From: Pyrodictium delaneyi
Lineage (GTDB): Archaea > Thermoproteota > Thermoprotei_A > Sulfolobales > Pyrodictiaceae
Assembly (NCBI RefSeq): GCF_001412615.1
Contig: NZ_CP013011.1
Span: 60,001 to 92,000 of the forward strand
Reading direction: 5' to 3'
DNA length: 32,000 nucleotides
Shown: positions 2,751-24,369 of the stretch, in pieces
Position numbering within the stretch: the first letter of the stretch is position 1
Layout of the letters: every line of letters starts with the position of its first letter
Made by a program: the position numbers and the translations under genes
Notes under the pieces: generated by a model
Told to the model about the DNA's origin: nothing
Seen by the model: the letters and a program-made list of their open reading frames with translations, nothing else
Databases searched by the model: none

Positions 2751-2969
2751 GCTCCGGGGCGCCAGTGATACTATTACCTCGACTAAGTCTCTTGCGGTCA
2801 GAACTGAAAGCAGCTTGTCGCAGAGCGAGGCGCTGACGTTCCTCTTCCCGTTCGCTATCATGTTCGCGTAGGCGTTGCTTATCCCCAGCTCCTTCGGCTT
2901 AACCCCCCGAGTCTTCCACGCATAGAGAAACAATGCCCTAGAGAGCTCGGGGCCCAGGATATCACACAT
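2706..2969 (-). CDS. Integrase N-terminal fragment Int(N), HTH-like, ending in the att-encoded 15 codons
   Basis: In the integrated state, ORF 2622..2969 reads from the ATG at 2969 into and through the tRNA gene. Residues 1-73 (MCDILGPELSRALFLYAWKTRGVKPKELGISNAYANMIANGKRNVS...) belong to the element. Codons 74-88 (AAVAQPAERRPGKAE) are the att core. Confidence 0.8.
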
Positions 2970-6148: not shown

Positions 6149-6154
6149 TACGCC

Positions 6155-8008: not shown

Positions 8009-8010
8009 AG

Positions 8011-8940: not shown

Positions 8941-8963
8941 TCTCCCAGCCCTACATAGCCGCC

Positions 8964-9350
8964 TTATTCTTCGCTCTCTTCGCCGTATATGATGCGCTTC
9001 ACAGGCTTCATCATGATTGGCGTCTGCGCCTGGCCCCTCGCAGCCCTCATCACGCTTATAATCTCCTTCAAGCGGCGGCGCCTGCGGCTAGCACGGAGTA
9101 TCAGCAGGTTCTCGGTCATGCTCCTCAGTATGGTGGGCTGCTGCCAGCCCATGTGCTGGCGGAGCATCTCGTCCACAGCCAGCAGCATCGCTATGCTCCG
9201 TATCTCGCCGTCCTTCAGGTCGCTCAGAGTGTACTTTGCTAGGCCCTCTGGCTCGACAAGCCGCTCAACCACGTAGTTCATAGCGCGGAACGGGTCGGGG
9301 CCCTCTCCGCCGCCCTTCCTCGCCTTCTGAATCTTATCCAAGAGCCTCAT
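8964..9350 (-). CDS. hypothetical protein (128 aa, basic RRRRR patch)
   Basis: ORF preceded by AGGTGGA. Its ATG overlaps the upstream stop (ATGA). Confidence 0.5.
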   Translation of the reverse strand: MRLLDKIQKARKGGGEGPDPFRAMNYVVERLVEPEGLAKYTLSDLKDGEIRSIAMLLAVDEMLRQHMGWQQPTILRSMTENLLILRASRRRRRLKEIISVMRAARGQAQTPIMMKPVKRIIYGEESEE

Positions 9351-9511
9351 GAGACATCCACCTGACGGGTAAGCCAGGTAACTGCGTATTTCGCTGTGAG
9401 TATCACCGTGATTGCGAGAGCGATAGTAACATCTTTCGTGAGTAGATAAGCCAGCATACCCATTGATGCTATAATCATCATAATCGCCAAAACTGCTAGA
9501 GTGCGGAACAT
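9347..9511 (-). CDS. 54-aa two-TM membrane protein (below the ORF-track cutoff)
   Basis: My own translation: MFRTLAVLAIMMIIASMGMLAYLLTKDVTIALAITVILTAKYAVTWLTRQVDVS. GGTGAGAG lies upstream. It is stop/start-coupled to 8964..9350. Confidence 0.5.
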   Translation of the reverse strand: MFRTLAVLAIMMIIASMGMLAYLLTKDVTIALAITVILTAKYAVTWLTRQVDVS

Positions 9512-9516
9512 GACTC

Positions 9517-10191
9517 TCACCCTGGCGTGTAGTTGCCGGGCGGCGGAAGCTCGTAGAGCGGCTTGCTCGGCAGCGTCACCTTGATGTCTATCGGCTTGGC
9601 TCCGATTTGGACTGGAACGCCCATGGCTGGCAGCACCACCAGGATGACTAGCACCGCGAGGCCCAGCCCCAGGAACATGCCGTACATCAGCAGGCTGTAG
9701 TCCTGTGCAACTACTCTTGCCACCTTGCTGAGCAGCTTGCTGTTGATTACCGCATAGCTCAACTCTGGTGGAAGCTGCCGCGCCTTAGCCCGCAGCGCCT
9801 CGCCGTCTACCTCGACTTCGAGGATGTTGCCCTCGCGGTCGGCTATCCACATGGGGACTAGGCGCTTGACCAGGTAGCGGCGTATCTCCACGTACTGCGG
9901 CCTAATCCCCCTCACGAGCCACGACTTCCCGCTCTTGTCCGAGACCGCCCAGCCGTCGCTCGTAATCCTCACAGTGTGCAGGACATAGTTGTTCTCGTCC
10001 ACCTGCTCAAGCACCCAGCCATGCCCGACCACTTTCTTCGCCGCCGTTATGCCCTGCTTCTCGGCCTCTTGCTCAGCCTCGGCTGTCTTCAGCCTGACTT
10101 CCCGCCTCATGCTCCAGAGCAGCAGCGCCAGGACTCCTATCGCGAGCGTGAGGGCGAATCCGGCTAGGCCTAGGATGGCCTCGAACTGCAT
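9517..10191 (-). CDS. bitopic membrane protein (N- and C-terminal TM segments with a soluble middle domain)
   Basis: TM segments ILGLAGFALTLAIGVLALLLW and LLMYGMFLGLGLAVLVILVVLPAM. GGTGAGAGG abuts the ATG. Confidence 0.6.
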   Translation of the reverse strand: MQFEAILGLAGFALTLAIGVLALLLWSMRREVRLKTAEAEQEAEKQGITAAKKVVGHGWVLEQVDENNYVLHTVRITSDGWAVSDKSGKSWLVRGIRPQYVEIRRYLVKRLVPMWIADREGNILEVEVDGEALRAKARQLPPELSYAVINSKLLSKVARVVAQDYSLLMYGMFLGLGLAVLVILVVLPAMGVPVQIGAKPIDIKVTLPSKPLYELPPPGNYTPG

Positions 10192-10201
10192 CCTCTCACC
10201 C

Positions 10202-10906
10202 CTAGACGGGCTTGATTATGTCTACTATGAGCTTCACGATTTCGGCCACGGTCTTGAACAGCTTCTCGAACATCCGGTAGATACGCTCGAAGAAATCGAG
10301 CCACATGGTTATGAAGCCGAGCAGCGGGAACAGCGACCGCTCCCTCGCGGCGCGGTTAGCGCTGTCCACGAACGTTGCTAGTATCATCGTCAGCACTATC
10401 CAGGGTATCCACGGTATGATGTTCACGCCCCAGGCCTTTATGGTTGCAAACGCCCACACAACTATCTCGACGAACGACGTTAGTGCTGCTATCAGGGCGG
10501 CGCCTATGTTGAAGATGAGCCAGCCTAGGTTGAATATCAACTGTAGGATGTAGCTGCCGAACACGTCCAGGAACTTGACCACGGCGCCGATTATCGGCAC
10601 GGCTTCTATCTTGTCCTTTATCCAATTCCAGAGGGATTTGGCCCCCTCTTGCACCTTGCAGCCTATGTAGCCGAATACGTCCCAGCTCAGCCAGCTGTCT
10701 GGCGGCTGGCAGCCAGTAGTGTTCGTGAAGTTGAAGCTCTGCACGAACTCGCGGAACGGTGTTGTATTATCGCTGTATATCGGGTTCTGGGCACCGGTAA
10801 CATTGTAGAGTATCTCTATCGGGTTGGGCGGAGTAGTCATGTTCCAAGTAGTGGTCTGCCCCACTAGCAGCAAAGAAACAATGAGCAGGGGCAGCAGCCG
10901 GCGCAC
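10202..10906 (-). CDS. secreted, glycosylated polytopic membrane protein
   Basis: Signal-like N-terminus MRRLLPLLIVSLLLVG followed by QTTT. Sequons NMT, NVT, NTT, NFT and NTT, then 3-4 hydrophobic helices. AGGTGGTG precedes the GTG start. Confidence 0.6.
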   Translation of the reverse strand: MRRLLPLLIVSLLLVGQTTTWNMTTPPNPIEILYNVTGAQNPIYSDNTTPFREFVQSFNFTNTTGCQPPDSWLSWDVFGYIGCKVQEGAKSLWNWIKDKIEAVPIIGAVVKFLDVFGSYILQLIFNLGWLIFNIGAALIAALTSFVEIVVWAFATIKAWGVNIIPWIPWIVLTMILATFVDSANRAARERSLFPLLGFITMWLDFFERIYRMFEKLFKTVAEIVKLIVDIIKPV

Positions 10907-10916
10907 GGTGCACCAC

Positions 10917-11198
10917 CTAGGCGGGCTTCTTCTCGACTAGGTATATCTCGACGGGTATCGGGCTGTACGCCTTCACCCAGTTCTTGTAGAGCTGGAACGC
11001 CTCGTCCCTGGCGATTCCCTCTAGTTCTACTTCGGCCCTCTTCGCGTGGTCGCCGTAGACTTCCTTCGAGGCCGAGATGAACTGGAGTGTGCGGTGTGCT
11101 GCGAAGAGCCAGATTTTGAGTCGGCCGCGGATTGCTATCGTTTTCCTACGCAGCGTTTTGCCGTCACCGTTGTATATCTTGACGATTATCTTGGGCAT
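10917..11198 (-). CDS. hypothetical soluble protein (93 aa)
   Basis: Internal ATG at 11198, preceded by GGGGTGA, gives MPKIIVKIYNGDGKTLRRK... The upstream part of tracked ORF 10917..11459 is H/R/G-rich and overlaps the neighbouring gene. Confidence 0.5.
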   Translation of the reverse strand: MPKIIVKIYNGDGKTLRRKTIAIRGRLKIWLFAAHRTLQFISASKEVYGDHAKRAEVELEGIARDEAFQLYKNWVKAYSPIPVEIYLVEKKPA

Positions 11199-11215
11199 GC
11201 CCGTCACCCCGAGCT

Positions 11216-11452
11216 CTAGATTATCGCCTTCCCGAGGCGGTAGAGCAGCCACCCCGCTATCACCCCGAGAACCACCATCCAGACCGTGTTGGCGTCTATG
11301 CTCAGCGTGTAGTGGTGCTCCGGAGTCAAGGTTACCGTCGTGGTTACGGTTACGGTGGTCATGTTCGTGGTGTTGGTGTCGGTCTGGGCGAGGGACAGGA
11401 GAGCCACCACCGGGGCTATCCGGGGGATACGTAGGCGCCACAGCTGCAACAC
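11216..11452 (-). CDS. small secreted Thr-rich, C-terminally anchored protein (78 aa)
   Basis: GTG at 11452 (GGTG upstream) gives VLQLWRLRIPRIAPVVALLSLA-QTDTNTTNMTTVTVTTTVTLT...VWMVVLGVIAGWLLYRLGKAII. It has the same architecture as the three plus-strand paralogs. Confidence 0.5.
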   Translation of the reverse strand: MLQLWRLRIPRIAPVVALLSLAQTDTNTTNMTTVTVTTTVTLTPEHHYTLSIDANTVWMVVLGVIAGWLLYRLGKAII

Positions 11453-11511
11453 CCAGCACCGATTGTAACTAGGAGCCCCGGCTCTGACTAAACTATTGTG
11501 GCGTGATGCAC

Positions 11512-11530
11512 CTACATCACAGTGATGTAG
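11512..11530. promoter_or_regulatory. perfect 19-bp palindrome between the two divergent structural operons (candidate operator)
   Basis: ctacatcac-a-gtgatgtag. It is flanked by A/T-rich boxes (aatagttta on the minus strand at about 11487-11495, and catatctaatt at about 11548-11558). Confidence 0.45.
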
Positions 11531-11603
11531 CAACAACACTTAGCAGCCCATATCTAATTCCTGCTGCAACAACTGTTACACGACAGAGCGTGAGGTGTGA
11601 GAG

Positions 11604-11849
11604 GTGCGCATCCTATCCCGGCTCAAGGAGAAGATAGACGAGAAGAAGATAGCCAGGAAGATAGCCGAGCACCCCGAGGCAGTGGCGGCTCTAACCCTCG
11701 TGGCTCAGACAACTACAAACGACACCGCAACCACGACAACAACTGTAGACCTAAGCCCGATGGTCAGCATAATCAGCAGCGTCATCCCGCTATTCGTGCT
11801 AGTAGCAGTCATAAAGATACTCTTCAAGAGCTTCAAGGACGTAGCATAG
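11604..11849 (+). CDS. small membrane protein, paralog 1 (candidate virion structural protein)
   Basis: GAGGTG lies 6 nt before the GTG start. A charged amphipathic N-terminus is followed by AVAALTLVA-QTTTNDTATTTTT, the TM segment MVSIISSVIPLFVLVAVIKILF, and KSFKDVA. Confidence 0.65.
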   Translation: MRILSRLKEKIDEKKIARKIAEHPEAVAALTLVAQTTTNDTATTTTTVDLSPMVSIISSVIPLFVLVAVIKILFKSFKDVA

Positions 11850-11864
11850 CGGGGCTGAGCAGTA

Positions 11865-12071
11865 ATGGCCAGCATCAACCGAATCAAGGAGAGAGTAAAG
11901 AGCCTGGCCAGCAGGCTGGGCCCGCCTGCCGCCGGCGCCGCCGTCCTAGTCGCGCAGACCGACAGCATGACAACCACAATATCTCTGGTAAACAGTGTCA
12001 TCCCGGTGCTAGTGCTGGTGATGGTTCTGAAGTTACTGTTCTCCAGCTTCAAGGAGATAAGCAAGGACTAG
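11865..12071 (+). CDS. small membrane protein, paralog 2
   Basis: MASINRIKERVKSLASRLG..AAVLVA-QTDSMTTT..VIPVLVLVMVLKLLFSSFKEISKD. Same layout as paralog 1. Confidence 0.65.
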   Translation: MASINRIKERVKSLASRLGPPAAGAAVLVAQTDSMTTTISLVNSVIPVLVLVMVLKLLFSSFKEISKD

Positions 12072-12082
12072 GGGTGGGACAC

Positions 12083-12292
12083 GTGTTCAAGCAGCTCAAG
12101 GAGAGACTGAGGGCGGGTTTTCGCAGGGCGGCCCCAGCCGCCGCAGCGGCCCTAGCACTGGCGCAGACGAGCACTTCAACATCTGGCTACGACGCAGTCG
12201 GCACGGTAGTCACTATGCTCATAGCCGTGGCGCTGCCAGCGCTGATACTCGTCAGCATCGTAAAGATGATTATGAACCATATACGCGCCTAG
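12083..12292 (+). CDS. small membrane protein, paralog 3 (GTG at 12083 or 12074)
   Basis: This is the 3' end of tracked ORF 11597..12292. VFKQLKERLRAGFRRAAPAAAAALALA-QTSTSTSG..VVTMLIAVALPALILVSIVKMIMNHIRA. GGGGTGG lies upstream. Confidence 0.6.
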   Translation: MFKQLKERLRAGFRRAAPAAAAALALAQTSTSTSGYDAVGTVVTMLIAVALPALILVSIVKMIMNHIRA

Positions 12293-12474
12293 CGCCACTC
12301 GTAGCAGCGATAGCGTTCACGGCGCAGAGCGCAGTAGAGACAGTCATAGACGTAAACCAGCAGGTCGCGGCGCTCATAGGGGCGCTCACGGTCTTCCTGC
12401 CGGTCGCCATACCTGCCATCATACTGCTGACTCTGCTGAAGATACTCTTCAGCGCCATGAAGCCAACGAGGTGA
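12292..12474 (+). other. start-less fourth copy of the small membrane-protein unit (pseudogene, recoded, or unconventional start)
   Basis: The frame open from 12061 to TGA at 12472-12474 encodes ..APLVAAIAFTA-QSAVETVIDVNQQVAALIGALTVFLPVAIPAIILLTLLKILFSAMKPTR. It shares the 13-nt string aagatactcttca with paralog 1 (11814-11826 vs 12439-12451). There is no ATG, GTG or TTG until 6 codons before the stop. Confidence 0.4.
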
Positions 12475-12479
12475 CCCGC

Positions 12480-12587
12480 ATGGGGTTTTTCGAGCCCCTT
12501 CTCCTCGGCGCCCTGGTCTACATGGTTATCCTGTTCTCGATGGTGATGCGGGTTGGCGGTGAGGATGAGGAGTCTGGCGGTGGCTAG
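12480..12587 (+). CDS. possible 35-aa TM peptide
   Basis: My own translation: MGFFEPLLLGALVYMVILFSMVMRVGGEDEESGGG. It overlaps the start of the large glycoprotein gene. Support is weak. Confidence 0.25.
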   Translation: MGFFEPLLLGALVYMVILFSMVMRVGGEDEESGGG

Positions 12588-15021
12588 CCTGATTGCCCTC
12601 GCTGTGCTACTGCCCCTAGCGAGCTCGCAGACCACGATGCTCCAGAACGTCTACTACCTGGACGTAGTCCAGGGACATTGGTACGCAGTATACACCGGCG
12701 GCACTCCATACAGAGTCTTCTACGTGGACGGCAGCGGGCAGACAGTCTATGTGACGTCGTACTGGTGGGACGCGAACCAGAGCTACATCATATTCCAGGC
12801 ACCCATCACCGGTAAGGTGTATCTGCGCGAGGAGCCGAGCCTCACACTATCAACACTCAGCACCACGGGATGGTGGAACTCCATCTCTGCGAGCGTGACA
12901 ATCACGACTAATAGCACGTTTCCGAACGGAACATACACAATGACGTTTAATCCGGCAAGCATAACGTATGATGGGAAGCAGCTAAAGATTGGATACGCGG
13001 CGAGCATCACGAAGGGATGGTATGGCCGGCTCGATGTCAACACTAAGTATTTCTTCGACTTCCAGTCATCAATAACGATAGACGATAGCAGCCTGAGCGT
13101 GTATGCGCGCTACGTGACAAGCTACTACTGCTATCCGTCACCGACGTACTGTTGGGAGCAGCGGCCTGTCTACAGCTCGCCAATCAATGGCGTGGCCGTG
13201 AACAGACCCGACCCGACGCAGTGTAACGTAGTTGCAAAATATTCGTATGTCCATGGACTACTGACTGTCACTGCAACAATCACGAACTATGGTGGAAGTT
13301 GTGAAACAGGTCAGAACGAGTACATATTGACACTATATACAACTAAGACAGTTGTTGTGAACGACTCGTTTACAGCGGACAATGGAAACACAGTTCATAT
13401 TGTTGACAGTCTCACTTACGCGGACATAGTTGCAACCAGTAGTAGCGCGACGTACTATCTCCAGAGCAGCCAGTGGAGCATAACGTTCCCTAACAGCACA
13501 GACATTGATAAGCCGCTCGTGCTTCTGCTACCAAGCAACATAAGCATGAGCAACCCGGCGGCCTACATCAAGAGTCCGCTAACGGCGTGGGCTGGCGTCG
13601 TGGCTAGGAGCGCTGGCAACTACACGCTGCTGGTCTTCAGCCCACCGGCCATGTACAACACTAGCAGCGTCAGCCTAGACCTGGTGGCAAACTATCCCTA
13701 CCGCTACGCGATACCACCAATCAACGTGAGATATGCAACCAGATTGGACATAGGCAGCATCCTGCCGGTATCGGGGAGCTTCAGCGTTGTGAACGGAGTA
13801 GCTGTGATAGACGGCAACATAAGCCTCGGGCAGCTCATAGGCTCAACGCTGCTGCTCCGCGGCGACCTAAGCAACGCCACCATCACAGGCGCAGAGGCCG
13901 GCAACATCACCATAGACGGCACCACGTGGCTAGCGCTCTACGTCTACGACACTAACGCCATGATAAGCGGGCATGCGGAGATAGCCGAGCTCATAGTCCT
14001 CGAGAACACCAGGACTATGATGGACTACACTGCCAGCATGACGGCGGGCTGGGACATTAGACCGTATGAAGTAGTCTCGGTAGAGGCTATCAGCTCGGCG
14101 AGCGTCTCCGGGAGCTGGGCTTATAGGATACCGGTCTACATCACGCTGTCGTATCTCCCGCAGAGCCTCACGGATACTGGCTACTTGTTCAGGCTGGAGC
14201 TGCCCATCGGCGACTGGATTAGAGCGGGGCTGCTATCACCTGCGCTCGAGGACTTGCTCATAGTGGACAGCTCGATGCAGCCGCTGCCATTCGCCATCAT
14301 AAAGAACGACGGTGAGAAGGCCGTGGTATACGTGCGCTACACCAGGCCGCTGCTCAGCCAGTCCATCGTGATATACATCCTGCTGAAGAACGAGCAGCTC
14401 TGGGGCACCGGGAACAGCTTCGCCAGCCTCGTAGCCACGTTCGACCGTATCAATCCCGCCGAGGGAGTGGACGACCTGGGGTGGAGCTACGGCTACAGCT
14501 ACATGGTCTACAACGCCTGGCTGTTCATAGGCAACGCTACCATTGCAGCCGGGCCTACCACATTCGACTTCGTGGCCTGGGAGCCGTCCAGCGGGCTCAT
14601 CTACGAGCAGCACGGCAGCCTGGTTACACAAAACATCTCAGTGACCCCCGCGAGCGGCGACGAGGTGCTGGTGCTCTTCAGCAACAATTATCAAGATGCT
14701 CTCGTGTATGTCGATGGCAAACCATGGTATAGTATACCACTGGCAAGCTTCAACATGACATCGCCGGCGTACTACGTCAAGTGGAAGAGCGCCGGAGCCG
14801 TCTACGCTGGCAAGATGATACCATACTCGTACGCAATCGGGCAGATTGTAGGCTCGCTGGAGCAGCCAGCGAAGGTGGAGATACAGCAGCCGGTGCCGCA
14901 GCAGCCGCAGCAGAGCGCGAGCATGTGGGACTTGCTCGCCGCGATGGCACCGCTGTTCCTGCTAGCCATCATAGTGAGGCTGATGCAGAACCCGCCAGCG
15001 CCAGCCCCCTACCCCAGATAG
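12565..15021 (+). CDS. large secreted, C-terminally anchored glycoprotein (candidate spike, fibre or receptor-binding protein)
   Basis: ATG at 12565 preceded by GGTGAGG (the track starts at TTG 12553). Signal MRSLAVASLIALAVLLPLASS followed by QTT. At least 13 N-x-S/T sequons (NQS, NST, NGT, NDS, NIS, NYT, NTS, NAT, NIT, NMT...). A Q/P-rich stalk precedes the TM segment LLAAMAPLFLLAIIV near the C-terminus. Confidence 0.75.
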   Translation: MRSLAVASLIALAVLLPLASSQTTMLQNVYYLDVVQGHWYAVYTGGTPYRVFYVDGSGQTVYVTSYWWDANQSYIIFQAPITGKVYLREEPSLTLSTLSTTGWWNSISASVTITTNSTFPNGTYTMTFNPASITYDGKQLKIGYAASITKGWYGRLDVNTKYFFDFQSSITIDDSSLSVYARYVTSYYCYPSPTYCWEQRPVYSSPINGVAVNRPDPTQCNVVAKYSYVHGLLTVTATITNYGGSCETGQNEYILTLYTTKTVVVNDSFTADNGNTVHIVDSLTYADIVATSSSATYYLQSSQWSITFPNSTDIDKPLVLLLPSNISMSNPAAYIKSPLTAWAGVVARSAGNYTLLVFSPPAMYNTSSVSLDLVANYPYRYAIPPINVRYATRLDIGSILPVSGSFSVVNGVAVIDGNISLGQLIGSTLLLRGDLSNATITGAEAGNITIDGTTWLALYVYDTNAMISGHAEIAELIVLENTRTMMDYTASMTAGWDIRPYEVVSVEAISSASVSGSWAYRIPVYITLSYLPQSLTDTGYLFRLELPIGDWIRAGLLSPALEDLLIVDSSMQPLPFAIIKNDGEKAVVYVRYTRPLLSQSIVIYILLKNEQLWGTGNSFASLVATFDRINPAEGVDDLGWSYGYSYMVYNAWLFIGNATIAAGPTTFDFVAWEPSSGLIYEQHGSLVTQNISVTPASGDEVLVLFSNNYQDALVYVDGKPWYSIPLASFNMTSPAYYVKWKSAGAVYAGKMIPYSYAIGQIVGSLEQPAKVEIQQPVPQQPQQSASMWDLLAAMAPLFLLAIIVRLMQNPPAPAPYPR

Positions 15022-15069
15022 CGCTTTTTGCACTATCCGCTGCTCTCTACACTAGAGGGTGCACCAGAT

Positions 15070-15357
15070 ATGGCAAGGAATGTCTATCTGGGGCGCGACT
15101 GCCTAAGCCCGCCATGCGTAGATGACCGTGGCCGGAGAGGCCTAGACCGCATCTCGGAAGTCAAGGACATAGCCGACCGCATCATAGAGGACTGTGAGGC
15201 TGGACGCATATCCTATAGAACAGCAATGGCAAGGATGAATCTCCTAGAGCTCGTGGTCAGCAGGGACAGCAGCTTCTCGGTGGAGCAGCGGCTGAAGGCC
15301 CGCCGGCTCATAGACCGCAAGAGAGAGGAGCTCATGGAGAAGTGTGGCGGTGAGTAA
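15070..15357 (+). CDS. hypothetical helical protein (95 aa)
   Basis: Internal ATG of ORF 15028..15357 preceded by GAGGGTG. Sequence: MARNVYLGRDCLSPPCVDDRGRRGLDRISEVKDIADRIIEDCEAG... Confidence 0.45.
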   Translation: MARNVYLGRDCLSPPCVDDRGRRGLDRISEVKDIADRIIEDCEAGRISYRTAMARMNLLELVVSRDSSFSVEQRLKARRLIDRKREELMEKCGGE

Positions 15358-15360
15358 GCC

Positions 15361-16032
15361 GTGCTGGAGAGCCTGGTGGCCGGCACCCTCGCTTACCTCT
15401 TTTTGCGTAGGGACGTTCCCTCTACGCTCATTCCGTATCTTGCTTCCTTCGCAGCATTCCTGGATCAAGTCACTACAGTAGCAGCTATCAGTCTAGGCGC
15501 CCACGAGACTAATCCGTTCGTGCGCCTGTTCCTCGCGAGCCCCACACTCTTCTTCGCACTCTCGGCAGCCAAGATTCTGGTAGCGTGGCACATAGCCAGG
15601 CGGAGCCCAAGACTCGGGCTCTGGCTAGCTCTAGTCTTCCTAGCAGCCGCAGCGATAAACGCCCACAACGCCTACGCGCTCTACAACAATACCTCAACCA
15701 TAGAGCTTGGCGGCCACACGCTCCAGGTCTACATAGCTGACACAGAAAGGGAGAGGGAGTGCGGCTACTACTGCTACGACCACCCGGCGATAGCCTTCAT
15801 CTGGCCAGGGGGGACACCGCCGGAAGTAACCTTCACCATGGAAGGCCTGGACTACCCGCTGCTCCTAGTCCACGTCAGGGACTGCACAGTCATAGACGTG
15901 CTGGAGATGCAGCCCGGCGAGAAGTATAGAATAGATAATGTAGGGCCACAAGACTGGTTCATCGAGGTAAAGAACGCGAGCCTAGAGATAGAGCCTGGCG
16001 AAAATGTTTGGGGGCTAGTCTGCGAGGGCTAG
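15361..16032 (+). CDS. membrane domain (HETNPF motif) fused to a DUF192-like beta domain
   Basis: Four hydrophobic helices are followed by LQVYIADTERERECG...IAFIWPG...FTMEGLDYPLLLVHV...VIDVLEMQPG...WFIEVKNASLEIEPGENV. This matches my memory of the DUF192/COG1430 pattern. Confidence 0.45.
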   Translation: MLESLVAGTLAYLFLRRDVPSTLIPYLASFAAFLDQVTTVAAISLGAHETNPFVRLFLASPTLFFALSAAKILVAWHIARRSPRLGLWLALVFLAAAAINAHNAYALYNNTSTIELGGHTLQVYIADTERERECGYYCYDHPAIAFIWPGGTPPEVTFTMEGLDYPLLLVHVRDCTVIDVLEMQPGEKYRIDNVGPQDWFIEVKNASLEIEPGENVWGLVCEG

Positions 16033-16911
16033 GACTACGGCCCGGCGCGGCGGCTTCCTCTGCAACTCCCGAAACTTTTCGGGCCTCTCTAGCCCCTCTT
16101 CCAGCATCTTAAGGAGCTCGGGATAGCTCGCGTCTGCAAGCTGCCTGAGATTCTCGTAGGCCAGGTCGCCCACTTTGAGGCTCCCTAGCCTAGAGTGGTA
16201 GAACTCGCACACGTCACGGCCAAGTACACGGCGGCATACCTGGCGGTGCAGCTTTCTCAGCTTGGACGCCTCGAAGCCGAAGTCCCTGGTGAGCCGCCTC
16301 GTAAAGGTCTTGTAGCCTATGACCGTGCCCGCGTGCTCCTCTATAGCCTCTAAGAGTCTGGCCGGGAAGTAGATGTAGTCGCAGCGCTTCTTGCCACGCT
16401 TCCAGAAGAGCCCATATCTCGCCACGCCGTCGGGGAGAATCTCTAGTCTAGAGGGATCGTACTCGGCTATCATCCGGAGCACCTCGTCTATCCTGGCGCC
16501 GCTATAGTATAGTATGTAGAGTGATAGCCGCCATTCGGGCCTAACATGCTCTGCCACGTCCCTCAGGGCCGAGACTAGCTCTGCCCAGTCTATCTCCACG
16601 CGCTCCGACACCTTGCTCTCCGTCTTGCGCTTCAGCAGTGAGAGATAACGCTCCTTGGCGTCCTTGCTCAGTCTCCCAGTCTCGAAGAGAAACTGCACCA
16701 GCTTCCTGGCGGCCTTGTAGGCCTTGTCGTTGCCGAGGGCCTCTAGGGCCTTCTCCTCGTCCAGGTAGTCCAGCTTCTCCAGCGCCGAGACGTAGTCGTT
16801 CGCGGTGCGCTCCTCTATACGCTCCTTCTCTATGAGCCACCGCCTAAAGGACTGGAGCAGGCCCGAGTGCAGCGATATAACAGGCAGGCCCGATGACCCC
16901 GGCTCGACCAT
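16015..16911 (-). CDS. Integrase catalytic fragment Int(C), SSV-type tyrosine recombinase
   Basis: 298 aa with YSGARIDEV (catalytic Arg region), KLHRQVCRR (H-x-x-R) and a C-terminal Tyr region (GDLAYENL). The frame stays open upstream to the att core at 16944 (QVLDLLYRARR precedes the Met). Confidence 0.8.
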   Translation of the reverse strand: MVEPGSSGLPVISLHSGLLQSFRRWLIEKERIEERTANDYVSALEKLDYLDEEKALEALGNDKAYKAARKLVQFLFETGRLSKDAKERYLSLLKRKTESKVSERVEIDWAELVSALRDVAEHVRPEWRLSLYILYYSGARIDEVLRMIAEYDPSRLEILPDGVARYGLFWKRGKKRCDYIYFPARLLEAIEEHAGTVIGYKTFTRRLTRDFGFEASKLRKLHRQVCRRVLGRDVCEFYHSRLGSLKVGDLAYENLRQLADASYPELLKMLEEGLERPEKFRELQRKPPRRAVVLALAD

Positions 16912-16944
16912 GCGCCTTGCGCGATATAACAGGTCAAGAACTTG

Positions 16945-16989
16945 CTCCGCCTTACCAGGGCGGCGCTCTGCCGGCTGAGCTACGGCGGC
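16945..16989. repeat. attR core (orphan 5' half of tRNA-Thr)
   Basis: Exact 45-bp copy of 2706-2750. No T arm or 3' acceptor strand follows it. Confidence 0.95.
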
Positions 16990-17132
16990 ACGCTCCAGTG
17001 GTATCGGCTCTATCTACAGCCCCAGGTAAATCCCTTACGGCCCTATTACCGTGATATGGTTTCGCCTAGGCTGCAGTAGCAGTATTATTCTGGCAGCATC
17101 TCTGTACGCCTCCCCTGGGGTGGCTACACAGA

Positions 17133-18134
17133 ATGAGCTACACGCTGCCAAAGGCACTCGTTACAACAGTTGTCGGTAGCTACCCAAAGCTGCCGGAGGC
17201 CGAGCAAGCTATCCAGAAGAGAAAGCGTGGGCTAATAAGTGAGGAGGAGTTCCACGAGCTGGTCAAGCCGGCTATAAAGGCCGTCGTTATGGACCATATA
17301 GAGGCTGGTGTTGATGTAATAAGTGATGGTGAGCAAGCGCGCGAAGACATGGTAGTGTACTTTGCCGAGAGGCTAGGCGGCTATCAGAGTGGCGACTGGG
17401 TCCGCATCTTTGACAACGTATACTTCCGTAAGCCGGTGGTAGCCTCTAGGCTCAGCTACATAGCCCCCATGGCTGTGACAGACTGGGAGTATGCCCGGAG
17501 CGTAGCCCAGGGTAGACCAGTCAAGGCCATAATAACTGGGCCTTACACTATGGTTGACTGGAGCTTCGACCTAGCCTACGGAGACCGTCGAGAACTAGTA
17601 CTCGAGATGGCTCGCGTACTGCGTCACGAGATAGAAGAGTTTGCACGCAGGGGTGCCGAGTTCATACAAGTAGACGAGCCAGCGCTGTCTACAAGGCCGT
17701 ATAAGGAGGAGGCTGAACTCCTACGTGAAGCCCTAGAAATAATGTTCAAAGGGATAAGTGCCAAGAAGATTATACACATATGTTTTGGTAGGATAGAAAA
17801 GATACTGCCTTACGCACTAGAGTTCCCAGTAGACCAGATAGATCTAGAGTTCAAGAACAGTAACTTCCGCCTCCTGCCATACCTCAAAGAGTATGGGTTC
17901 GACAAGGAGCTAGGATACGGCGTAATAGACGTGCATAGTACACGTATCGAGAGCGTCGAGGAGATAAAGAACGACATCTACAAGCTCATAAAGATGGATA
18001 TAATACCACCAGAGAAGATATACATCGACCCAGACTGTGGCGTCAAACGACTCCCAAGAGAGATTGCCAAGGCGAAGCTACGCAATATGGTTAAGGCAGC
18101 GCGTGAGGTGCGTCGCGAGCTAGGCTACGAGTAG
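17133..18134 (+). CDS. metE: cobalamin-independent methionine synthase (MetE catalytic-domain type)
   Basis: 333 aa with VVGSYPK, DGE, VDEPAL, HICFG and DPDCG motifs characteristic of COG0620 enzymes. Confidence 0.75.
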
Positions 18135-18351
18135 CCTTCTAATGAACTTAGCACTGGCGCATGGCTCCATCCACTAGTGGTGAATAGCCACAATTTCGTT
18201 GTTTTAACCCTTCTTTACTCTTTATGATTAAAGTTATGTATTTCGTATTGTGTAGTGTGTAGTACTCTAGACCTCTAACTGCTCTTACTAGCAGCCACAA
18301 TCGCGATGTGATGATTAGATATAGGAAGAGGAAGTATGAGGGCAGCCATCT

Positions 18352-19578
18352 ATGGCGTCCGGCAAGCTACCTTACCCAACTAGAAGGATAAAGGAAGGAA
18401 AGGCTGAGATAATCGTTCCAGACCCTGACGCCTATCGCCGTAAAGACGGAGTATATGAGCCAGCGTGGGCGCCGGTATTTTACAATCCCAAAATGCGATT
18501 CAATCGAGATATAGCGATACTAGTTGCTAATGCCTATCGGGAGATGATAGGTCAAGAAAGACTTGTGGTTGCCGAGCCGTTGACAGGTAGCGGTGTCCGA
18601 GCTATACGTTATGCGCTAGAAGCTGATGCGCAAGTATACGCTGCTGATATAGATCCAGATGCTGTATATTTAGCTAGGCTTAATGTGGAGGCAAATGGTG
18701 TGCAAGAGCGCGTAACCGTCGAGCGTGCTGACGCAAATGAATACCTAGCTAAGCTGAGAAGAGAAGGAGTAAGACTCTCCATAATAGACATAGACCCGTT
18801 TGGAAGCCCAGCACCTTTTCTTGACACAGCAATACAGTCCATCAGCGTACGTGGTATAATAGCAGCTACGGCCACGGACACAGCTCCACTCTCGGGCACT
18901 CATCCACGTGCCCTACGCCGGAGATACGATGTACAGCCAGCTCGTACTGCCTGGGAGAAGGAGCAAGCAGTAAGGCTGCTCGCTGGCTACATAATAAGAA
19001 GAGCAGCAAGCCACGAATATGGAGTTCGCATACTTCTTGCATATTATGCAGACTATTATGTAAGAGTCTATGCTGAGCTCTGGCGAGGCGCGTCAAGAGC
19101 TGATGATAGTCTTTCTAAGCTGGGCTATGGAGTATACTGTCCATATTGTGGCTATACAGGCTATACCGATAATCCTCGTACACGGTGTCCTTACTGTGGT
19201 GGAACTGTGCAGATAGTAGGTCCGCTCTATACTGGTCCTTTATGCAACCAAGAGTTCATGGAGATGCTACGTTCAACCCTAGATAAGAGGGTCGGCTCAC
19301 TAGCAGAACCTAAGCGTGCAGTTAAGCTATTCGAGCAACTCAGCCTTGAGTGTACGATAACAAAGCCATACTATAGACTAGATAAGCTTTGCAGTATCCT
19401 ACATATGAACATGCCGAAGCCGGACAGCATGGTAGAAGCGCTTAGACGCAAGGGCTACAAGGCTGCCCGGACCCACTTTGATCCACGAGGATTTAGAACT
19501 AATGCACCTCATACAGAAGTACTAAATACTCTTATAGAGATGCAAGCGCGTATAGCTAGAGAGGATGATGACAACTAG
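18352..19578 (+). CDS. trm1: tRNA (guanine26-N2)-dimethyltransferase Trm1
   Basis: FYNPKMRFNRDI hallmark, SAM-binding region, and the Zn-finger CPYCG...CPYCGG. Confidence 0.85.
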   Translation: MASGKLPYPTRRIKEGKAEIIVPDPDAYRRKDGVYEPAWAPVFYNPKMRFNRDIAILVANAYREMIGQERLVVAEPLTGSGVRAIRYALEADAQVYAADIDPDAVYLARLNVEANGVQERVTVERADANEYLAKLRREGVRLSIIDIDPFGSPAPFLDTAIQSISVRGIIAATATDTAPLSGTHPRALRRRYDVQPARTAWEKEQAVRLLAGYIIRRAASHEYGVRILLAYYADYYVRVYAELWRGASRADDSLSKLGYGVYCPYCGYTGYTDNPRTRCPYCGGTVQIVGPLYTGPLCNQEFMEMLRSTLDKRVGSLAEPKRAVKLFEQLSLECTITKPYYRLDKLCSILHMNMPKPDSMVEALRRKGYKAARTHFDPRGFRTNAPHTEVLNTLIEMQARIAREDDDN

Positions 19579-19633
19579 GAACGGCTATATTTTATTGCGG
19601 TTTGTGTAGGACTGTTATATGATGATGTTAATA

Positions 19634-20167
19634 CTACATAGACATTGCTTGTTTTAGTCGTGCTATTTTGGCTGTTAGCCAGTTTGACAGTAGAGGGCAT
19701 GTTGTCGGGTCAAAGAAGCCACCATTATGGCATCGCTCAAGATTCTTGCAACTAAAGCAGGGCACTTCTATGATACTGCCTATTCTTATTTCAATCTTTA
19801 TGGCTTGCTTTGCATGTTTAGCTATAAAGAGCTTATAGGTCCTTCTGCCTTTATGTACTGTCGGCTCACGTGTGATAAGGCCCTTCTTGAGTAGACGGAG
19901 GGCTAGCCTAGAACCTTCTCTGCTATCTAGACCTAGAGTTTTCCATAGCTCGTGCTGGTATATGCCCTCATCGCCATGAGCCTTGATTATCTCAAGTGCC
20001 TTGGCTTCGAGGTCTTCAAGACTTTTCCTCTCGCCAACGGAGGGCTCTATAGCAGCTGCCAAGGCTCCTAGATCCCCCACCCGTAATCGGATTCTACATT
20101 TGTAATCGTTAGTATCTCCCGGGGTAGCCGGGGTGACACCATGAATCCTAACTATGTCTGCTCTCAC
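19634..20167 (-). CDS. wHTH protein with a C-terminal four-Cys cluster (TFE-beta/RPC34-like)
   Basis: The wHTH region is IYQHELWKTLGLDSREGSRLALRLLKKGLITREPTVHKGRRTYKL. It is followed by CFSCKNLERC...TTC, four Cys as in crenarchaeal TFE-beta FeS domains. Confidence 0.45.
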   Translation of the reverse strand: MRADIVRIHGVTPATPGDTNDYKCRIRLRVGDLGALAAAIEPSVGERKSLEDLEAKALEIIKAHGDEGIYQHELWKTLGLDSREGSRLALRLLKKGLITREPTVHKGRRTYKLFIAKHAKQAIKIEIRIGSIIEVPCFSCKNLERCHNGGFFDPTTCPLLSNWLTAKIARLKQAMSM

Positions 20168-20563
20168 CCTATAACCTTATCCCAATCTGGGTCTACGGCC
20201 TTATCCATACCTCTCTCATTAACGCCATTATGAGGCCGGTTCTACAAAAATGCATCTACACCTATTATGGGGCTAAATAGTGTCAAATACAAAATAGAGG
20301 CAGGCTAAGACCCGTGGATATGCAGATTCTCCTTCAATGTCGCCAGTATAGGTAGTGTGGACGCTGCCACCGGGATGGGATAGAGTAGGGTTTAGCACCA
20401 GGTCTGTCTATATGCTATCTGCTTCCTATTAGACGGGAGAGAGTAGAACGGAATCGCATAGAGTTAACGACAAAATCTAGTTAGTGTATTTAATCAATTT
20501 AATTAAAGGTTGGATCGTGTGCTGCATAGTCATGAGTGTCGTATTAGTAGAGAGGGGGTTAAC

Positions 20564-21445
20564 TTAAAGACGAACCTCTATGTAGAAGTTGTCCACTATG
20601 TCGCGGTACCTGTTGCGTATAGTGGCGTCGGTTACGCCTATAGCCTTTGCCACTGTTAGCTGGTTCCTCTTCTGGTCAAGTAGTATAGACGAGACGTAGA
20701 CAGCTGCAGCTGCTAGCGCCTCTGGGGGCTTACCCTGTGCTAGGCCAGTCCTTGCGAGCATTATGGTGAACCTGGTAGCTAGCGCCTCTACTTCGCCGTT
20801 CAAGCCCAGCTTAGAGGCTATCTTTGATACATACATTTGGGGTTTTGGTGGGGTTGTGACGCGAACCTTGAGTCTTGTTACAATTCGGCGGTAAGCTCTC
20901 CATACGTCTTGCTCGCTTAGACCGAGAGTCTCGGCTACGTCGCGCATTGTAAGTGGGTGTCTCTCTATACGGGCTGCAACGACAGCTGCAGCTGCTAAGT
21001 ACTCGTTGATGTTGTTCTTCTTCAAGACGCCGAGGCTTTGGAGTTGCCTAATAATCCGTGCCATAGTCTCTGCTACACGTGACGGAAGTTGTAGTCGTGC
21101 AGCGACACGGTTGGCCTCCTGGAGAACCTTAATGAGTTTCTTGTGTCCATGACTTCGGAGACTGGCTTGTATCGCGACAAGCTTCCTTGCGCGTATATCA
21201 CTCCGAGGAGCATATATGTACGTGGTTAACCCTTTGTCATGTACACGTGCGGTAAGCGGTGCGCCAACACGGCTCCTTCGCGTCCTATCCTCTTCGGTAA
21301 AGCTGCGCCACTCTGGACCCGAGTCTATCGGCGACTCCTCTAGCACAAAACCACATGATGTACATACGAGTCTTCCGTCACTTTGTCTACGCGCATATAT
21401 GGATAGAGGGCCGCCACAGCTTGGACACTTATCCATCATAGTCAT
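20564..21445 (-). CDS. tfb: transcription initiation factor TFB
   Basis: N-terminal Zn ribbon CPSCGG...CTSCGF, a B-linker, and two cyclin-fold repeats (EYLAAAAVVAA.., ALAAAAVYVSS..). Confidence 0.9.
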   Translation of the reverse strand: MTMMDKCPSCGGPLSIYARRQSDGRLVCTSCGFVLEESPIDSGPEWRSFTEEDRTRRSRVGAPLTARVHDKGLTTYIYAPRSDIRARKLVAIQASLRSHGHKKLIKVLQEANRVAARLQLPSRVAETMARIIRQLQSLGVLKKNNINEYLAAAAVVAARIERHPLTMRDVAETLGLSEQDVWRAYRRIVTRLKVRVTTPPKPQMYVSKIASKLGLNGEVEALATRFTIMLARTGLAQGKPPEALAAAAVYVSSILLDQKRNQLTVAKAIGVTDATIRNRYRDIVDNFYIEVRL

Positions 21446-21861
21446 TTTGAACCCCTCCTGCCGCGCGGCCTCCCGCCACCCCCTCTACGCTCTCCACGTC
21501 TAGGCTGCTTGCCACCTCTGCTCCTTCTGCGCTTTTGCTCTCCTTGCTTTCTATCTCGGTGTTTTACTGGCTTTCTTGCACCCTTCGCAGCTCTAGCTGG
21601 CTTCCTGGCCCGTCTTCGGCGAGGACTCGGTGGTCTATAGTAGAGCTTCACTCCTTTCTCGACTCTCACTTCGCGGGATGAGGGCTTGACTACGGCATAC
21701 GGAGACTTAACCGGCCCAATGATGTCTAAGAGTACTCCTACCCGGTTCATGTCTTCATCGTAAACTACTGTATTGAGGGGTGGAACTTGTTCTTCCTCGA
21801 TCTTGGCAACTATGTAGCCGCTGGGAGTTGTATGGAGTACCGTGCCAAGCCTCTTCAGCAT
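21442..21861 (-). CDS. gar1: H/ACA RNP protein Gar1 with a long Arg/Lys/Gly-rich tail
   Basis: RLGTVLHTTPSGYIVAK...VYDEDMNRVGVLLDIIGPVKSPYAVVKP is the Gar1 core. The tail is about 60 aa, including RRGGGGRPRGRRGSK. Its stop overlaps the tfb ATG (ATGA). Confidence 0.8.
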   Translation of the reverse strand: MLKRLGTVLHTTPSGYIVAKIEEEQVPPLNTVVYDEDMNRVGVLLDIIGPVKSPYAVVKPSSREVRVEKGVKLYYRPPSPRRRRARKPARAAKGARKPVKHRDRKQGEQKRRRSRGGKQPRRGERRGGGGRPRGRRGSK

Positions 21862-21991
21862 CAGACGTGCCCTCGCTCCAGGGGTGGCGGGCGGCTCCTA
21901 TTAGTTACAATGGAGTAATCAGAATAGATGCGGAAACGGGGTTAAAAGATGCAGGACTCGTAGTACCGGCTGTTCGAGGGGCAGGAGTTCT

Positions 21992-22903
21992 TTGGTTGGC
22001 AGCGTGGCTGTGATGGGTTGCGGCTCTGTAGGCTTATTCATTGCGGCTAGTATAGCCTCGGCGGGGTACCGGCCAAAATTACTCTGTCTGAGTTCGGACG
22101 ATGCCTCCCTCCTGGTACAACGAGAGATACGAGTATACCATGGTGGTGGCGAGGCCCGGGCTAAAGTATCAGTGGCGCACGTCACAGCAGCTAGAGGCGA
22201 GTACAGCTACATAGTACTAGCATCAAGGTTGAATAATGCTGAGGAGGCGTTGAGTGCTGCCAAAAGGCTACTCTCGCCCAACGGGGGTGTACTTGTTGTA
22301 CAGCCGTCGCCGTTCATTCTAGAGCTCGGCGAAAAGCTTGGTGTCAGGATCGTAGGCGTATTAGGCCTATATACATGTATCAGAAGGATAGGCATTGATG
22401 CGGTTGAGTGGCCAGGAGCAGGCGTTCTACGTATAGCGCTAGCGGACCCCAATGCAGCAATGGTAACAGCTGCTATCCGGGCTCCAGGTCTACGTATGGA
22501 GCACCGAGGCAGCTCTCTTAGAGAACTACTCTGGGACTACTGTATCGTGGCCTCAGCTATTCAGCCCGTCTCAGCCATACTAGGCCTCCCCTACTCGAAG
22601 CTCTGGAGACTTCGACATGCACGTGAGCTGGCAACACTAGTAGCTAGCGAGGCTGAGCGAGTAGCCGAGAAGGCTGGTGTAAAGCTTTGGAGGAGTGCTA
22701 GCGAAGCCCTAGAGGAGGCTGCGGGCATTAAGGGGTGTATGCCAAGGATGCTACAAGATGTTAATGAGCGTAGAGAGACAGAGGCCGACTACATACTCGG
22801 ATACCTCCTACGGCAGGCAATAAGGCTAGACGTATATACGCCCTACATAGACTCCATCTACCTAACAATCAAGGCTATTGAGGAGAGTATGATAACAGCC
22901 TAG
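21992..22903 (+). CDS. panE: 2-dehydropantoate 2-reductase (ketopantoate reductase family)
   Basis: N-terminal Rossmann motif VAVMGCGSVG. The C-terminal ApbA-like region contains ETEADYILGYLLRQA. Confidence 0.6.
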   Translation: MVGSVAVMGCGSVGLFIAASIASAGYRPKLLCLSSDDASLLVQREIRVYHGGGEARAKVSVAHVTAARGEYSYIVLASRLNNAEEALSAAKRLLSPNGGVLVVQPSPFILELGEKLGVRIVGVLGLYTCIRRIGIDAVEWPGAGVLRIALADPNAAMVTAAIRAPGLRMEHRGSSLRELLWDYCIVASAIQPVSAILGLPYSKLWRLRHARELATLVASEAERVAEKAGVKLWRSASEALEEAAGIKGCMPRMLQDVNERRETEADYILGYLLRQAIRLDVYTPYIDSIYLTIKAIEESMITA

Positions 22904-22949
22904 TGGTGCACCTAGCGCTCAATGTGAATATGTGTAGCGGTGTGCAGTA

Positions 22950-24290
22950 ATGGCTATAAAGCTTGGCAAAAAGCACGTAAAGGCGTTTATAGAGGTTCTC
23001 GAGGAATCTGAGAGGATAAAGCCCTTCCAAGTAGTAAAGAGGAGAGTATTCAGCAAGTATGGCGTACTTGGAACGCGCTACGATACGATATTCACCGCTC
23101 TGCTCTATAAGATATACCGTATGCAAGGCATCCTAGACAAGATAGCAGAAGAGCGGCTCAGACTCAACCTCTCTAGGCTTCCCGTTGCACTCCGCCAATC
23201 TACAAGACTAGCGGTAGTGCTAGCCGTATTCGATGACGTGGGCGATATAGAGTTCAACAGAGCACTCATAGGTGGTATTGTACGCTTACTAGAGGCTCGG
23301 TTTGGGGAAAAAGCGGGGATCGTAGTAGACCTTTACAAGAGCCTCGAGAAGGAGCCCTGGAGGCCACGAAGCAGGATAGAAGAGCTTGAGCTACGATACT
23401 TGCTTCCAGGCTTATTGATAAAGAGGCTTGAGAAACTGCTTGATCGCGGAGAACTAGAGTTATTCGCAAAAGCTGTTAACACGCGGAGGCCTATCCTAGG
23501 GTTCCGTGTAAACAGGCTAAAGGCTAGCGTCAAGGTAGTTCTACGCGTGCTTGAAGAGATGGGTGTAGAAGCCTGGGAGAGCACAAGAGTGCCCTGGCAT
23601 ATACGGTACCGTGGTCAGCTAGACTACAACCGGTTTAAGCCGCTGCTCCGCGGCGAAGTAGTGCCACAAGATGAGGCGAGTGCGGCTGCAGGCGAGCTGC
23701 TGGGCGCTAGGCCGGGAGAACTCGTTGTTGATATGTGTGCGGCGCCGGGCGGAAAGACTACACATCTAGCGGAAATAGCATCCAATAGAGCCACTATAAT
23801 GGCTCTAGACGTGTTTAGCGATCGGATGGAAAGGCTCATAGAGCTGGCCAGGAAAACGGGAACAATAGCCTCCATAGTACCCGTTATCGGGGATGCGCGT
23901 AGGATTTCGACGTTTCTACGCCTGCATGCTAACCGTGTACTCCTCGACCCACCATGTACGAGCACAGGTGCGCTAGCTAAGCATCCAGAAGCTCGCTGGA
24001 GACTGACAGAAGAGGCAATAAAGAAGCAAGTGGAGAGACAGCGTGCTATGTTAGTTGAGGCGATTGAGATCCTGAAGCCTGGCGGGCTTCTACTCTATAC
24101 CGTGTGTAGTGTTCTCCCCGAGGAGGGCGAGTACAATATACAATGGATCCTGGAGAATAGAAAAGATGTTGAGCTAGTGCCGCTCCAGGGTCCTTACGAC
24201 GAGTCCCCGCTGCTACCCGGCACTATGAGGGCCTGGCCGCACCGGCATGATACAACTGGCTTCTTCTACGCTCTACTCCGTAAACGTTAG
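22950..24290 (+). CDS. NOL1/NOP2/Sun-family RNA cytosine-C5 methyltransferase
   Basis: DMCAAPGGKT (SAM motif I), DPPCTSTG (motif IV Cys) and LLYTVCS (motif VI Cys). Confidence 0.85.
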   Translation: MAIKLGKKHVKAFIEVLEESERIKPFQVVKRRVFSKYGVLGTRYDTIFTALLYKIYRMQGILDKIAEERLRLNLSRLPVALRQSTRLAVVLAVFDDVGDIEFNRALIGGIVRLLEARFGEKAGIVVDLYKSLEKEPWRPRSRIEELELRYLLPGLLIKRLEKLLDRGELELFAKAVNTRRPILGFRVNRLKASVKVVLRVLEEMGVEAWESTRVPWHIRYRGQLDYNRFKPLLRGEVVPQDEASAAAGELLGARPGELVVDMCAAPGGKTTHLAEIASNRATIMALDVFSDRMERLIELARKTGTIASIVPVIGDARRISTFLRLHANRVLLDPPCTSTGALAKHPEARWRLTEEAIKKQVERQRAMLVEAIEILKPGGLLLYTVCSVLPEEGEYNIQWILENRKDVELVPLQGPYDESPLLPGTMRAWPHRHDTTGFFYALLRKR

Positions 24291-24369
24291 CCAACCTGCC
24301 CTCCCGGGGCACTGTAAGCACGTATATCCCCGGCGCTGGATCATGCTATATTGCAGGGTATAGAGAGGG

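Follow-up and report, generated by a model that had tools for sequence, protein, structure and literature searches.

In a 32,000-nt stretch of the chromosome of the hyperthermophilic archaeon Pyrodictium delaneyi (NCBI RefSeq GCF_001412615.1, contig NZ_CP013011.1, positions 60,001 to 92,000; hereafter "the window"), we identified a 14.2-kb virus-like element that very probably split its own integrase gene, int, by integrating into the 5' half of the gene for tRNA-Thr(GGT). The gene's N-terminal part, Int(N), lies at one end of the element and the C-terminal part, Int(C), at the other. The flanking repeat, the reading frame across it, the protein family, the arrangement conserved at a related locus and purifying selection on both halves were all directly observed.

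Partition of int by integration is an archaeal phenomenon known since the virus SSV1 and was reviewed in 2021. To our knowledge, such self-splitting ("suicidal") integrases occur in archaea only, and their persistence, excision and change of target are still debated. The paper on the genome of P. delaneyi strain Hulk mentions neither integrases nor proviruses, and the literature searched links no provirus to P. delaneyi. The element thus provides a clean, undecayed example of a split integrase in Pyrodictium, a genus without a described virus or provirus in that literature.

Partition of the integrase gene at the attachment site

The attachment (att) site was recognized from two exact direct-repeat copies of 45 nt, at 2706-2750 and 16945-16989. 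They lie 14,239 bp apart, are 100% identical and form the sole long repeat in the window (chance expectation ~1e-18). The repeat corresponds to nucleotides 1-45 of tRNA-Thr(GGT), that is, the acceptor 5' strand, the D arm, the complete anticodon arm and a further two nucleotides, which places the anticodon stem-loop at the 3' end of the att core. The intact tRNA gene scored 72.6 bits against Rfam RF00005. The features of the split locus are as follows, with the basis of each in brackets:

2675-2750, minus strand: intact tRNA-Thr(GGT), rebuilt at the junction on the Int(N) side (ARAGORN, Rfam RF00005)
2706-2750: att core copy 1, tRNA nt 1-45 (exact 45-nt repeat)
2751-2969, minus strand: Int(N), 73 codons, five-helix XRE-like helix-turn-helix (HTH) domain (open reading frame [ORF], sub-cutoff HTH_3 match, AlphaFold2)
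2751-16989: integrated element, 14,239 bp with one core copy counted (repeat, GC content)
16015-16944, minus strand: Int(C), 309 codons plus stop, core-binding and catalytic domains (ORF, PF16795)
16945-16989: att core copy 2, truncated tRNA 5' half fused to Int(C) (exact 45-nt repeat)
16990-17132, minus strand: former tRNA upstream region, now before the core and Int(C) (sequence)

Joining 2969..2751 (219 nt), one core (45 nt) and 16944..16015 (930 nt) on the minus strand gave 1194 nt, or 397 codons plus a stop, with zero internal stops. The core is translated as AAVAQPAERRPGKAE, followed by QVLDLLYRARR and then MVEPGSS, so that codons 74-88 of the int ORF make up attP, the element's attachment site. 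When integrated, the Int(N) ORF runs on across the tRNA and stops at 2622 (115 aa); the 298-aa ORF of Int(C) starts from the ATG at 16911. An initial annotation, made from the letters of this DNA, had described a 73-codon Int(N) at 2969-2751 running into the att core, the same continuation of the frame to MVEPGSS, and the recreation by excision of a 397-aa integrase with attP inside its coding sequence. We recovered the same coordinates, and our in silico join agrees with that description to the base. It had further held that no intact integrase gene exists in the integrated state; none is present in the window, since the ORF contains attP. The rebuilt ORF has neither a frameshift nor a stop at the junction, either of which had been named beforehand as evidence that would count against the partition.

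The element would have integrated by site-specific recombination of the tyrosine-recombinase type, between attP in its own int and the first 45 nt of the tRNA-Thr(GGT) gene. Because attP lies within the int ORF, at codons 74-88, integration would split the gene into Int(N) and Int(C). Int(N), a putative HTH domain with a candidate promoter of its own, now sits directly upstream of the rebuilt tRNA, and Int(C) is preceded by the region once upstream of the tRNA and by the tRNA's truncated 5' half. The 397-aa integrase would be re-formed by precise excision, with the 15 tRNA-derived codons as a linker, and the predicted attP junction reads ...GCGCCCCGGAGC, the 45-nt core, then CAAGTTCTTGACC.... 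Crossover would take place within the 45 bp. Integrases usually use inverted core sites flanking a 7-bp overlap (PMC8371274), a layout that the anticodon stem-loop at the 3' end of the core may fit. For excision, an episomal copy or a related element would have to supply an intact integrase, with Int(C) perhaps complementing it; complementation by Int(C) in excision has been reported for pTN3 and TKV4 (PMC8371274, PMC5495485).

Related loci

The junction of Int(N) with tRNA-Thr was found at six loci (the window, L001, L029, L030, L031 and L032), and Int(C) with a second core only in the window and L001. The latter is a 19.7-kb vent-metagenome contig in which a 49-nt repeat within the same tRNA-Thr marks the ends of a different element, of 9,054 bp. 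One end of that element holds Int(C) (P0001, 78% identity); at the other, an uncalled Int(N) (83% identity) enters the tRNA in the frame seen in the window.

At three of the remaining loci, Int(N) may stand alone. In L029 (10001-10295), an open Int(N) lies directly before tRNA-Thr, and cellular genes and a tRNA-Ile begin ~200 nt upstream; this arrangement identifies it as a solo Int(N) fossil. L030 (10001-10307) and L032 (10001-10313) likewise carry an open Int(N) before tRNA-Thr, with at most 3-6 kb of unannotated genes. Neither Int(C) nor a second core was found within reach of Int(N) in L029, L030 or L032. Int(N)-only clusters also outnumbered close Int(C) clusters in the search of representative proteins. 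This pattern fits selective retention of Int(N) after loss of the element and falls short of proving it.

HTH-type Int(N) sequences were also fused to the 5' half of tRNA-Val(GAC) (P0068, P0082 and P0097; L033 197-549; L035 127-419). Since Int(N) occurs on both tRNA-Thr and tRNA-Val, the lineage appears to have switched its tRNA target while keeping the 5'-half geometry.

At a contig end in L002 (9990-10528), next to a DHDPS gene, an Int(N) remnant of 25 codons is followed by the core and a truncated Int(C). Successive integrations may have left this stretch as a relic, or it may stem from assembly. Its protein, P0003, was considered as an episomal attP form and rejected: it is a chromosomal remnant at a contig end, with 25 Int(N) codons and with Int(C) cut short.

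Mobility of the element

Several observations count against the scheme of integration and excision proposed here. The uninterrupted attP form was absent from 1.84 billion representative proteins, IMG/VR and JGI metagenome contigs. HMMER against the representatives returned no full-length close relative; in IMG/VR the junction DNA pattern gave 0 matches and a protein-guided scan 0 relatives; and the JGI metagenome scan yielded only 30-37% relatives, matching residues 119-395. The sole contiguous stretch of Int(N), core and Int(C) that we found is the truncated remnant in L002. Strain Hulk carries the element at the same site; neither an empty site nor a polymorphism was seen, and mobility is a prediction only. 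In the protein, the K-x-x-R box of SSV-type integrases reads S-K-L-R, with the Lys one position nearer the Arg (-2, not -3). Finally, expression of the tRNA, Int(N) and Int(C) is deduced from sequence only.

A serious possibility, on balance the less probable one, is that the reconstruction is historically right and the element is now an immobile fossil ("captured" DNA) in a cell with no intact integrase. The lack of an intact int gene in the window, the identical insertion in Hulk, the absence of an episomal or attP form from the collections searched and the apparent decay series with Int(N) alone at L029, L030 and L032 all agree with such a fossil. Against it, the two cores show 100% identity, the int halves and every larger ORF of the element remain open, and the difference in GC content is unameliorated. 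Related systems are, moreover, excised in trans by a cognate integrase (PMC8371274).

The comparison with Hulk covered ~20 kb. The Int(C) protein is identical on NCQP01000006.1 of that strain, and the window from 5150 onward is 99.95% identical to the Hulk contig (L012). The sole indel is a 6-nt ATATAC in the intergenic region at ~8010-8025, of which the window has one more tandem copy. The first 328 nt of the Hulk contig (L012 1-328) failed to align with window 4822-5149, which reflects either a strain difference in the left part of the provirus or a contig-end artefact.

The two halves as one gene

The 298-aa ORF starting at 16911 could in principle be a complete integrase and the 73-codon ORF an unrelated XRE-type regulator, with the shared frame a coincidence. 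In-frame, stop-free continuity by itself has a chance of ~0.2, the in-frame ATG 11 codons past the core is kept in L001, P0002 and L002, and truncated Int(C) of SSV1 and SSV2 is weakly active in vitro (PMC8371274). We nevertheless consider a self-sufficient Int(C) very unlikely, given the following comparisons.

Between the window and L001, the synonymous divergence (dS) was 0.63 for Int(N) and 0.60 for Int(C), with ratios of nonsynonymous to synonymous divergence (omega) of 0.21 and 0.25, respectively. Equal dS and low omega indicate that the halves share one divergence time and are under purifying selection, and that they evolve as one gene. The stretch of 11 codons that separates the core from the ATG of Int(C) is identical in the window, L001 and P0002, and residues 89-98 align with a conserved helix (xxLxLLxxxGV) in full-length relatives. 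Since the codons before the ATG at 16911 are conserved, the coding sequence really begins upstream of that ATG.

Int(N) also ends exactly at the tRNA 5' end in eight loci and on two different tRNAs. In L002 and L029, the D-loop of tRNA-Thr is 2 nt longer, and the part of the core 5' of the D-loop reads RRSSAW rather than AAVAQP; the frame through the anticodon arm and onward is unchanged despite the longer loop. Such compensation is expected only if continuity over the core matters. In addition, the integrase of pTN3, which is an uninterrupted gene on the free plasmid, has the 5' half of tRNA-Leu translated from nt 1 within one ORF, in the frame found here (AGVAEPGQRRWTQD).

Family and structure of the rebuilt integrase

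The rebuilt protein matched PF16795 (Phage_integr_3, "Archaeal phage integrase") over residues 210-366 with an E-value of 6.4e-19 and a score of 68.9 bits, against a cutoff of 27. No match to PF00589 was found at E<=1 in Pfam. An integrase family of PHROGs, phrog_5127, spans residues 43-371. In a five-way alignment, R239, K274, R318, R340 and Y351 aligned with R211, K243, R281, R304 and Y314 of the SSV1 integrase, and these columns are invariant in 22 relatives. As a separate observation, S-[KR]-[LM]-R replaces the SSV-type K-x-x-R in this clade (Int residues 315-318, given as the window 16034-16039 region).

An AlphaFold2 model, built from a 22-sequence alignment, had a mean predicted local distance difference test score (pLDDT) of 85.8. 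The N-terminal 70 residues form five helices predicted with high confidence (pLDDT ~90 for residues 10-60), and Int(N) gave an HTH_3 match with an E-value of 0.0024, under the Pfam cutoff. The core-encoded residues 72-84 are the sole long low-confidence stretch (pLDDT <50), which fits a model in which the 15 residues encoded by the core form a flexible linker between the domains. The top Foldseek match in the PDB was the catalytic domain of the SSV1 integrase (3uxu; target template modelling [TM] score 0.71). The SSV1 integrase entries 3vcf and 4dks were also matched, with target TM scores of 0.67-0.72 for the set, and XerH, lambda Int and Cre ranked after them. The model and the sequence matches together identify the rebuilt product as a probable SSV-type ("suicidal", type I) tyrosine recombinase, for which recombination activity is predicted.

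A pNOB8- or lambda-type integrase with attP outside the gene (type II: PF00589, R...YxxR...Y), which the initial annotation had also named as a finding that would speak against it, is refuted for practical purposes by the position of the core inside the ORF and by the match to PF16795 (E 6e-19), with none to PF00589 at E<=1.

Geometry and comparison with known systems

Here, the att core is the sense 5' half of the tRNA, and the rebuilt tRNA lies behind Int(N), away from its own promoter. The 2021 review called this geometry unique to the pTN3-like integrases (PMC8371274). In Thermococcales, these integrases combine the 5'-half geometry with a displaced tRNA promoter and complementation by Int(C) (PMC8371274, PMC5495485). 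As here, attP lies inside int in pTN3 and TKV4 (Cossu et al. 2017, PMC5495485). The core of pTN3 is 41 bp of the sense 5' half of tRNA-Leu, compared with 45 bp of tRNA-Thr in the window, and both are read in the same frame (AGVAEPGQRRWTQD vs. AAVAQPAERRPGKAE). In pTN3 and TKV4, too, the rebuilt tRNA is cut off from its original promoter behind Int(N), and Int(C) has an in-frame ATG close to its start.

The proteins themselves differ. Identity to the pTN3 integrase is 24.1% over 324 aligned residues, under the integrase family criterion of PMC8371274 (>=30% identity over >=60% of length). The pTN3 integrase has 455 aa rather than 397 and carries insertions that are absent here; its N-terminal domain looks like a ribbon-helix-helix (RHH) fold, whereas ours is XRE-like HTH; and the hosts of pTN3 and TKV4 are Thermococcales, whereas the host here is a crenarchaeon (Pyrodictiaceae).

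Similarity to the D-335 integrase of SSV1 (Fuselloviridae) is of another kind. Both genes are split at a 44-45-bp attP about 65-75 codons into the ORF, and the proteins share the PF16795 catalytic domain and the aligned R/K/R/R/Y residues, the SSV1 integrase being the best structural match. The elements have DnaA-like ATPase, nuclease, DUF5658 and RHH genes in common. SSV1, however, uses a 44-bp core made of the antisense 3' part of tRNA-Arg, which leaves the tRNA with its promoter. The two proteins are 26% identical over 166 residues, the N-terminal domain is a different one, and the motif is K-x-R here vs. K-x-x-R. Thus, of the SSV1-type partition that had been proposed in the initial annotation, the SSV-type family and the split gene stand, whereas the geometry is that of pTN3 and not of SSV1.

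Among named families, the highest identity was to the pT26-2 family (pGE2 of Pyrococcus abyssi; 30.4% over 286 residues, E 4e-22), a borderline value by the family criterion with one member compared in full. These are likewise suicidal integrases with PF16795. They differ in their euryarchaeal hosts and N-terminal region, and the core of pGE2 is the 3' part of a tRNA (GFEPAAS) rather than tRNA nt 1-45. Identity to the TPV1 integrase was 28%. The closest full-length catalytic relatives were integrases of uncultured Desulfurococcales and Thermoproteota (P0005-P0010, L003-L006 and L013-L027; 30-37% identity). Their host lineages are related, and their N-terminal parts translate antisense tRNA 3' parts (e.g., DSNPRG), an SSV1-like geometry unlike the 5'-half core here. 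A scan of GTDB genomes returned only four distant Desulfurococcales/Thermoproteota loci in metagenome-assembled genomes.

Taken together, these comparisons point to an SSV-type suicidal integrase that is topologically like that of pTN3 and, by sequence, falls outside the pTN3 family. The 5'-half geometry, reported earlier only for pTN3-like elements of Thermococcales, now extends to a crenarchaeon, with another N-terminal domain and a catalytic domain nearer other families.

Promoters and the retention of Int(N)

The geometry would make transcription of the host tRNA depend on sequence of the element. Two candidate promoter features were located upstream of the rebuilt tRNA:

2981-3027, minus strand: conserved int leader, with TATA-like GATATAAC at 3027-3020 and Shine-Dalgarno-like GGTGAT at 2986-2981 (comparison with L001)
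2784-2789, minus strand: GACTTA inside Int(N), a candidate TATA-like or protein-binding element (deduced from codon conservation)

The int leader, before the ATG at 2969, is conserved in L001, and sequence farther upstream is unrelated. The ATA core of the TATA-like motif is kept in six loci. The GACTTA box lies 39 nt upstream of tRNA +1. Within the conserved motif T-A-[KR]-D-L, the D-L dipeptide is encoded by GAY-TTA in all six tRNA-Thr-linked Int(N) sequences, and the Leu codon is TTA in eight of eight (window, L001, L029-L033 and L035), including the tRNA-Val-linked L033 and L035, for which this had been predicted beforehand. In these two, the box stands at -58 and -32 from the tRNA, which weakens a simple TATA-box reading. 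TTA makes up 2.3% of Leu codons in the genes of the window. Other conserved Leu columns of Int(N) vary among CTN codons, and dS is saturated. The tRNA may now be transcribed from element sequence, either from the int promoter or from the TATA-like box within Int(N), and the old tRNA promoter may drive Int(C).

A similar box was seen in the native regions upstream of the tRNA, now before Int(C). In the window this region contains GTAAGGGATTTAC with GATTTA at 17032-17027 (-43), and in L001 it contains GTAAGAGACTTAG at -45; the shared box is G[TC]AAGRGAYTTA (window 17027-17039). Either Int(N) mimics a tRNA promoter or the seemingly native upstream regions would be older Int(N) fossils. Similarity of the upstream region to Int(N) is clear for L002 (z 6.9). 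For the window it is weak, with a best p of ~0.007 against L030 among six comparisons.

We tentatively propose, while holding it to be doubtful, that these loci represent a separate crenarchaeal lineage of suicidal integrases (Pyrodictiaceae/Desulfurococcales) with an XRE-type HTH N-terminal domain, of which this may be the founding example. It would target tRNA 5' halves (Thr-GGT and Val-GAC), carry within the final codons of Int(N) the GAYTTA box, constrained at the nucleotide level and similar to the BRE/TATA-like motif of the native tRNA-Thr upstream regions, and practice promoter-replacement "addiction". If so, a tRNA that is presumably essential would on integration exchange its own promoter for one from the element. 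Afterwards the host would be free to delete the element but not Int(N), which would account for the solo open Int(N) in L029, L030 and L032. The invariant rare TTA and the solo Int(N) fossils thus offer a testable hypothesis for Int(N) outliving the elements that brought it.

Gene content and surroundings of the element

The element has a GC content of 55-63%, compared with 47-53% in the flanks, and is compositionally foreign. The flanks encode housekeeping genes. Features of the element other than int are listed below:

5143-5322, plus strand: RHH (CopG-like) protein (PF01402)
6155-6688, plus strand: viral/archaeal nuclease, SSV1 D-244 type (phrog_9634, E 8e-22; PF12187, E 2.6e-6)
8029-8940, minus strand: DnaA-like AAA+ replication initiation protein (phrog_5484, E 1.3e-26; tblastn)
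11216-11449, minus strand: fourth small membrane paralogue (motif likeness)
11604-12292, plus strand: three paralogous small membrane proteins, candidate structural proteins (role deduced)
12637-15021, plus strand: 794-aa ORFan with a C-terminal transmembrane helix (transmembrane prediction)
15361-16032, plus strand: DUF5658 protein, of a family also annotated in SSV1 (PF18902, E 6e-6)

A DnaA-like AAA+ ATPase is a hallmark of fusello-, gutta- and bicaudaviruses, and that of the element had tblastn matches in APOV1, SSVs and APSV1. With this ATPase, the D-244-type nuclease and the SSV-type integrase all present, the element appears to hold the gene kit of fusello-/gutta-/bicaudavirus-like crenarchaeal viruses. 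A preprint on Aeropyrum globular virus 1 (AGV1) noted homologues of its nuclease and ATPase in "Pyrodictium sp.". When the whole element was compared by megablast with 50,697 phage and archaeal-virus records, nothing matched, which rules out that it is APOV1, APSV1 or another deposited virus.

An L[AV]AQT motif is common to the four small paralogues, as are a Thr-rich stretch containing N-x-T sequons and a transmembrane helix at the C terminus; none (11216-12292) had a database match. The neighboring 794-aa ORFan, which had no match in Pfam, PHROGs or the phage collection, resembles VP4 (C-792) of SSV1 in size and position only. Together, these genes may form a virion or envelope module. No VP1/VP3 capsid homologue was recognized among the element proteins in the same three collections.

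The tRNA-Thr locus is a synteny breakpoint (window 1-2674 and 17133-24300 vs. L001 1-4200 and L029 1-9460). The flanks of the window carry PAC2, TGT_C2, g131 and an 88-aa gene on one side and TRM, MarR, TFIIB, Gar1 and ApbA on the other. In L029, both sets lie on one stretch in another order, and compared with L001 the orientation of g131 is inverted. One inversion at the tRNA does not suffice to derive the flank order of the window from L029 or L001. A 27-nt imperfect repeat (5934-5960 vs. 30158-30184, 78% identity) is most likely due to chance.

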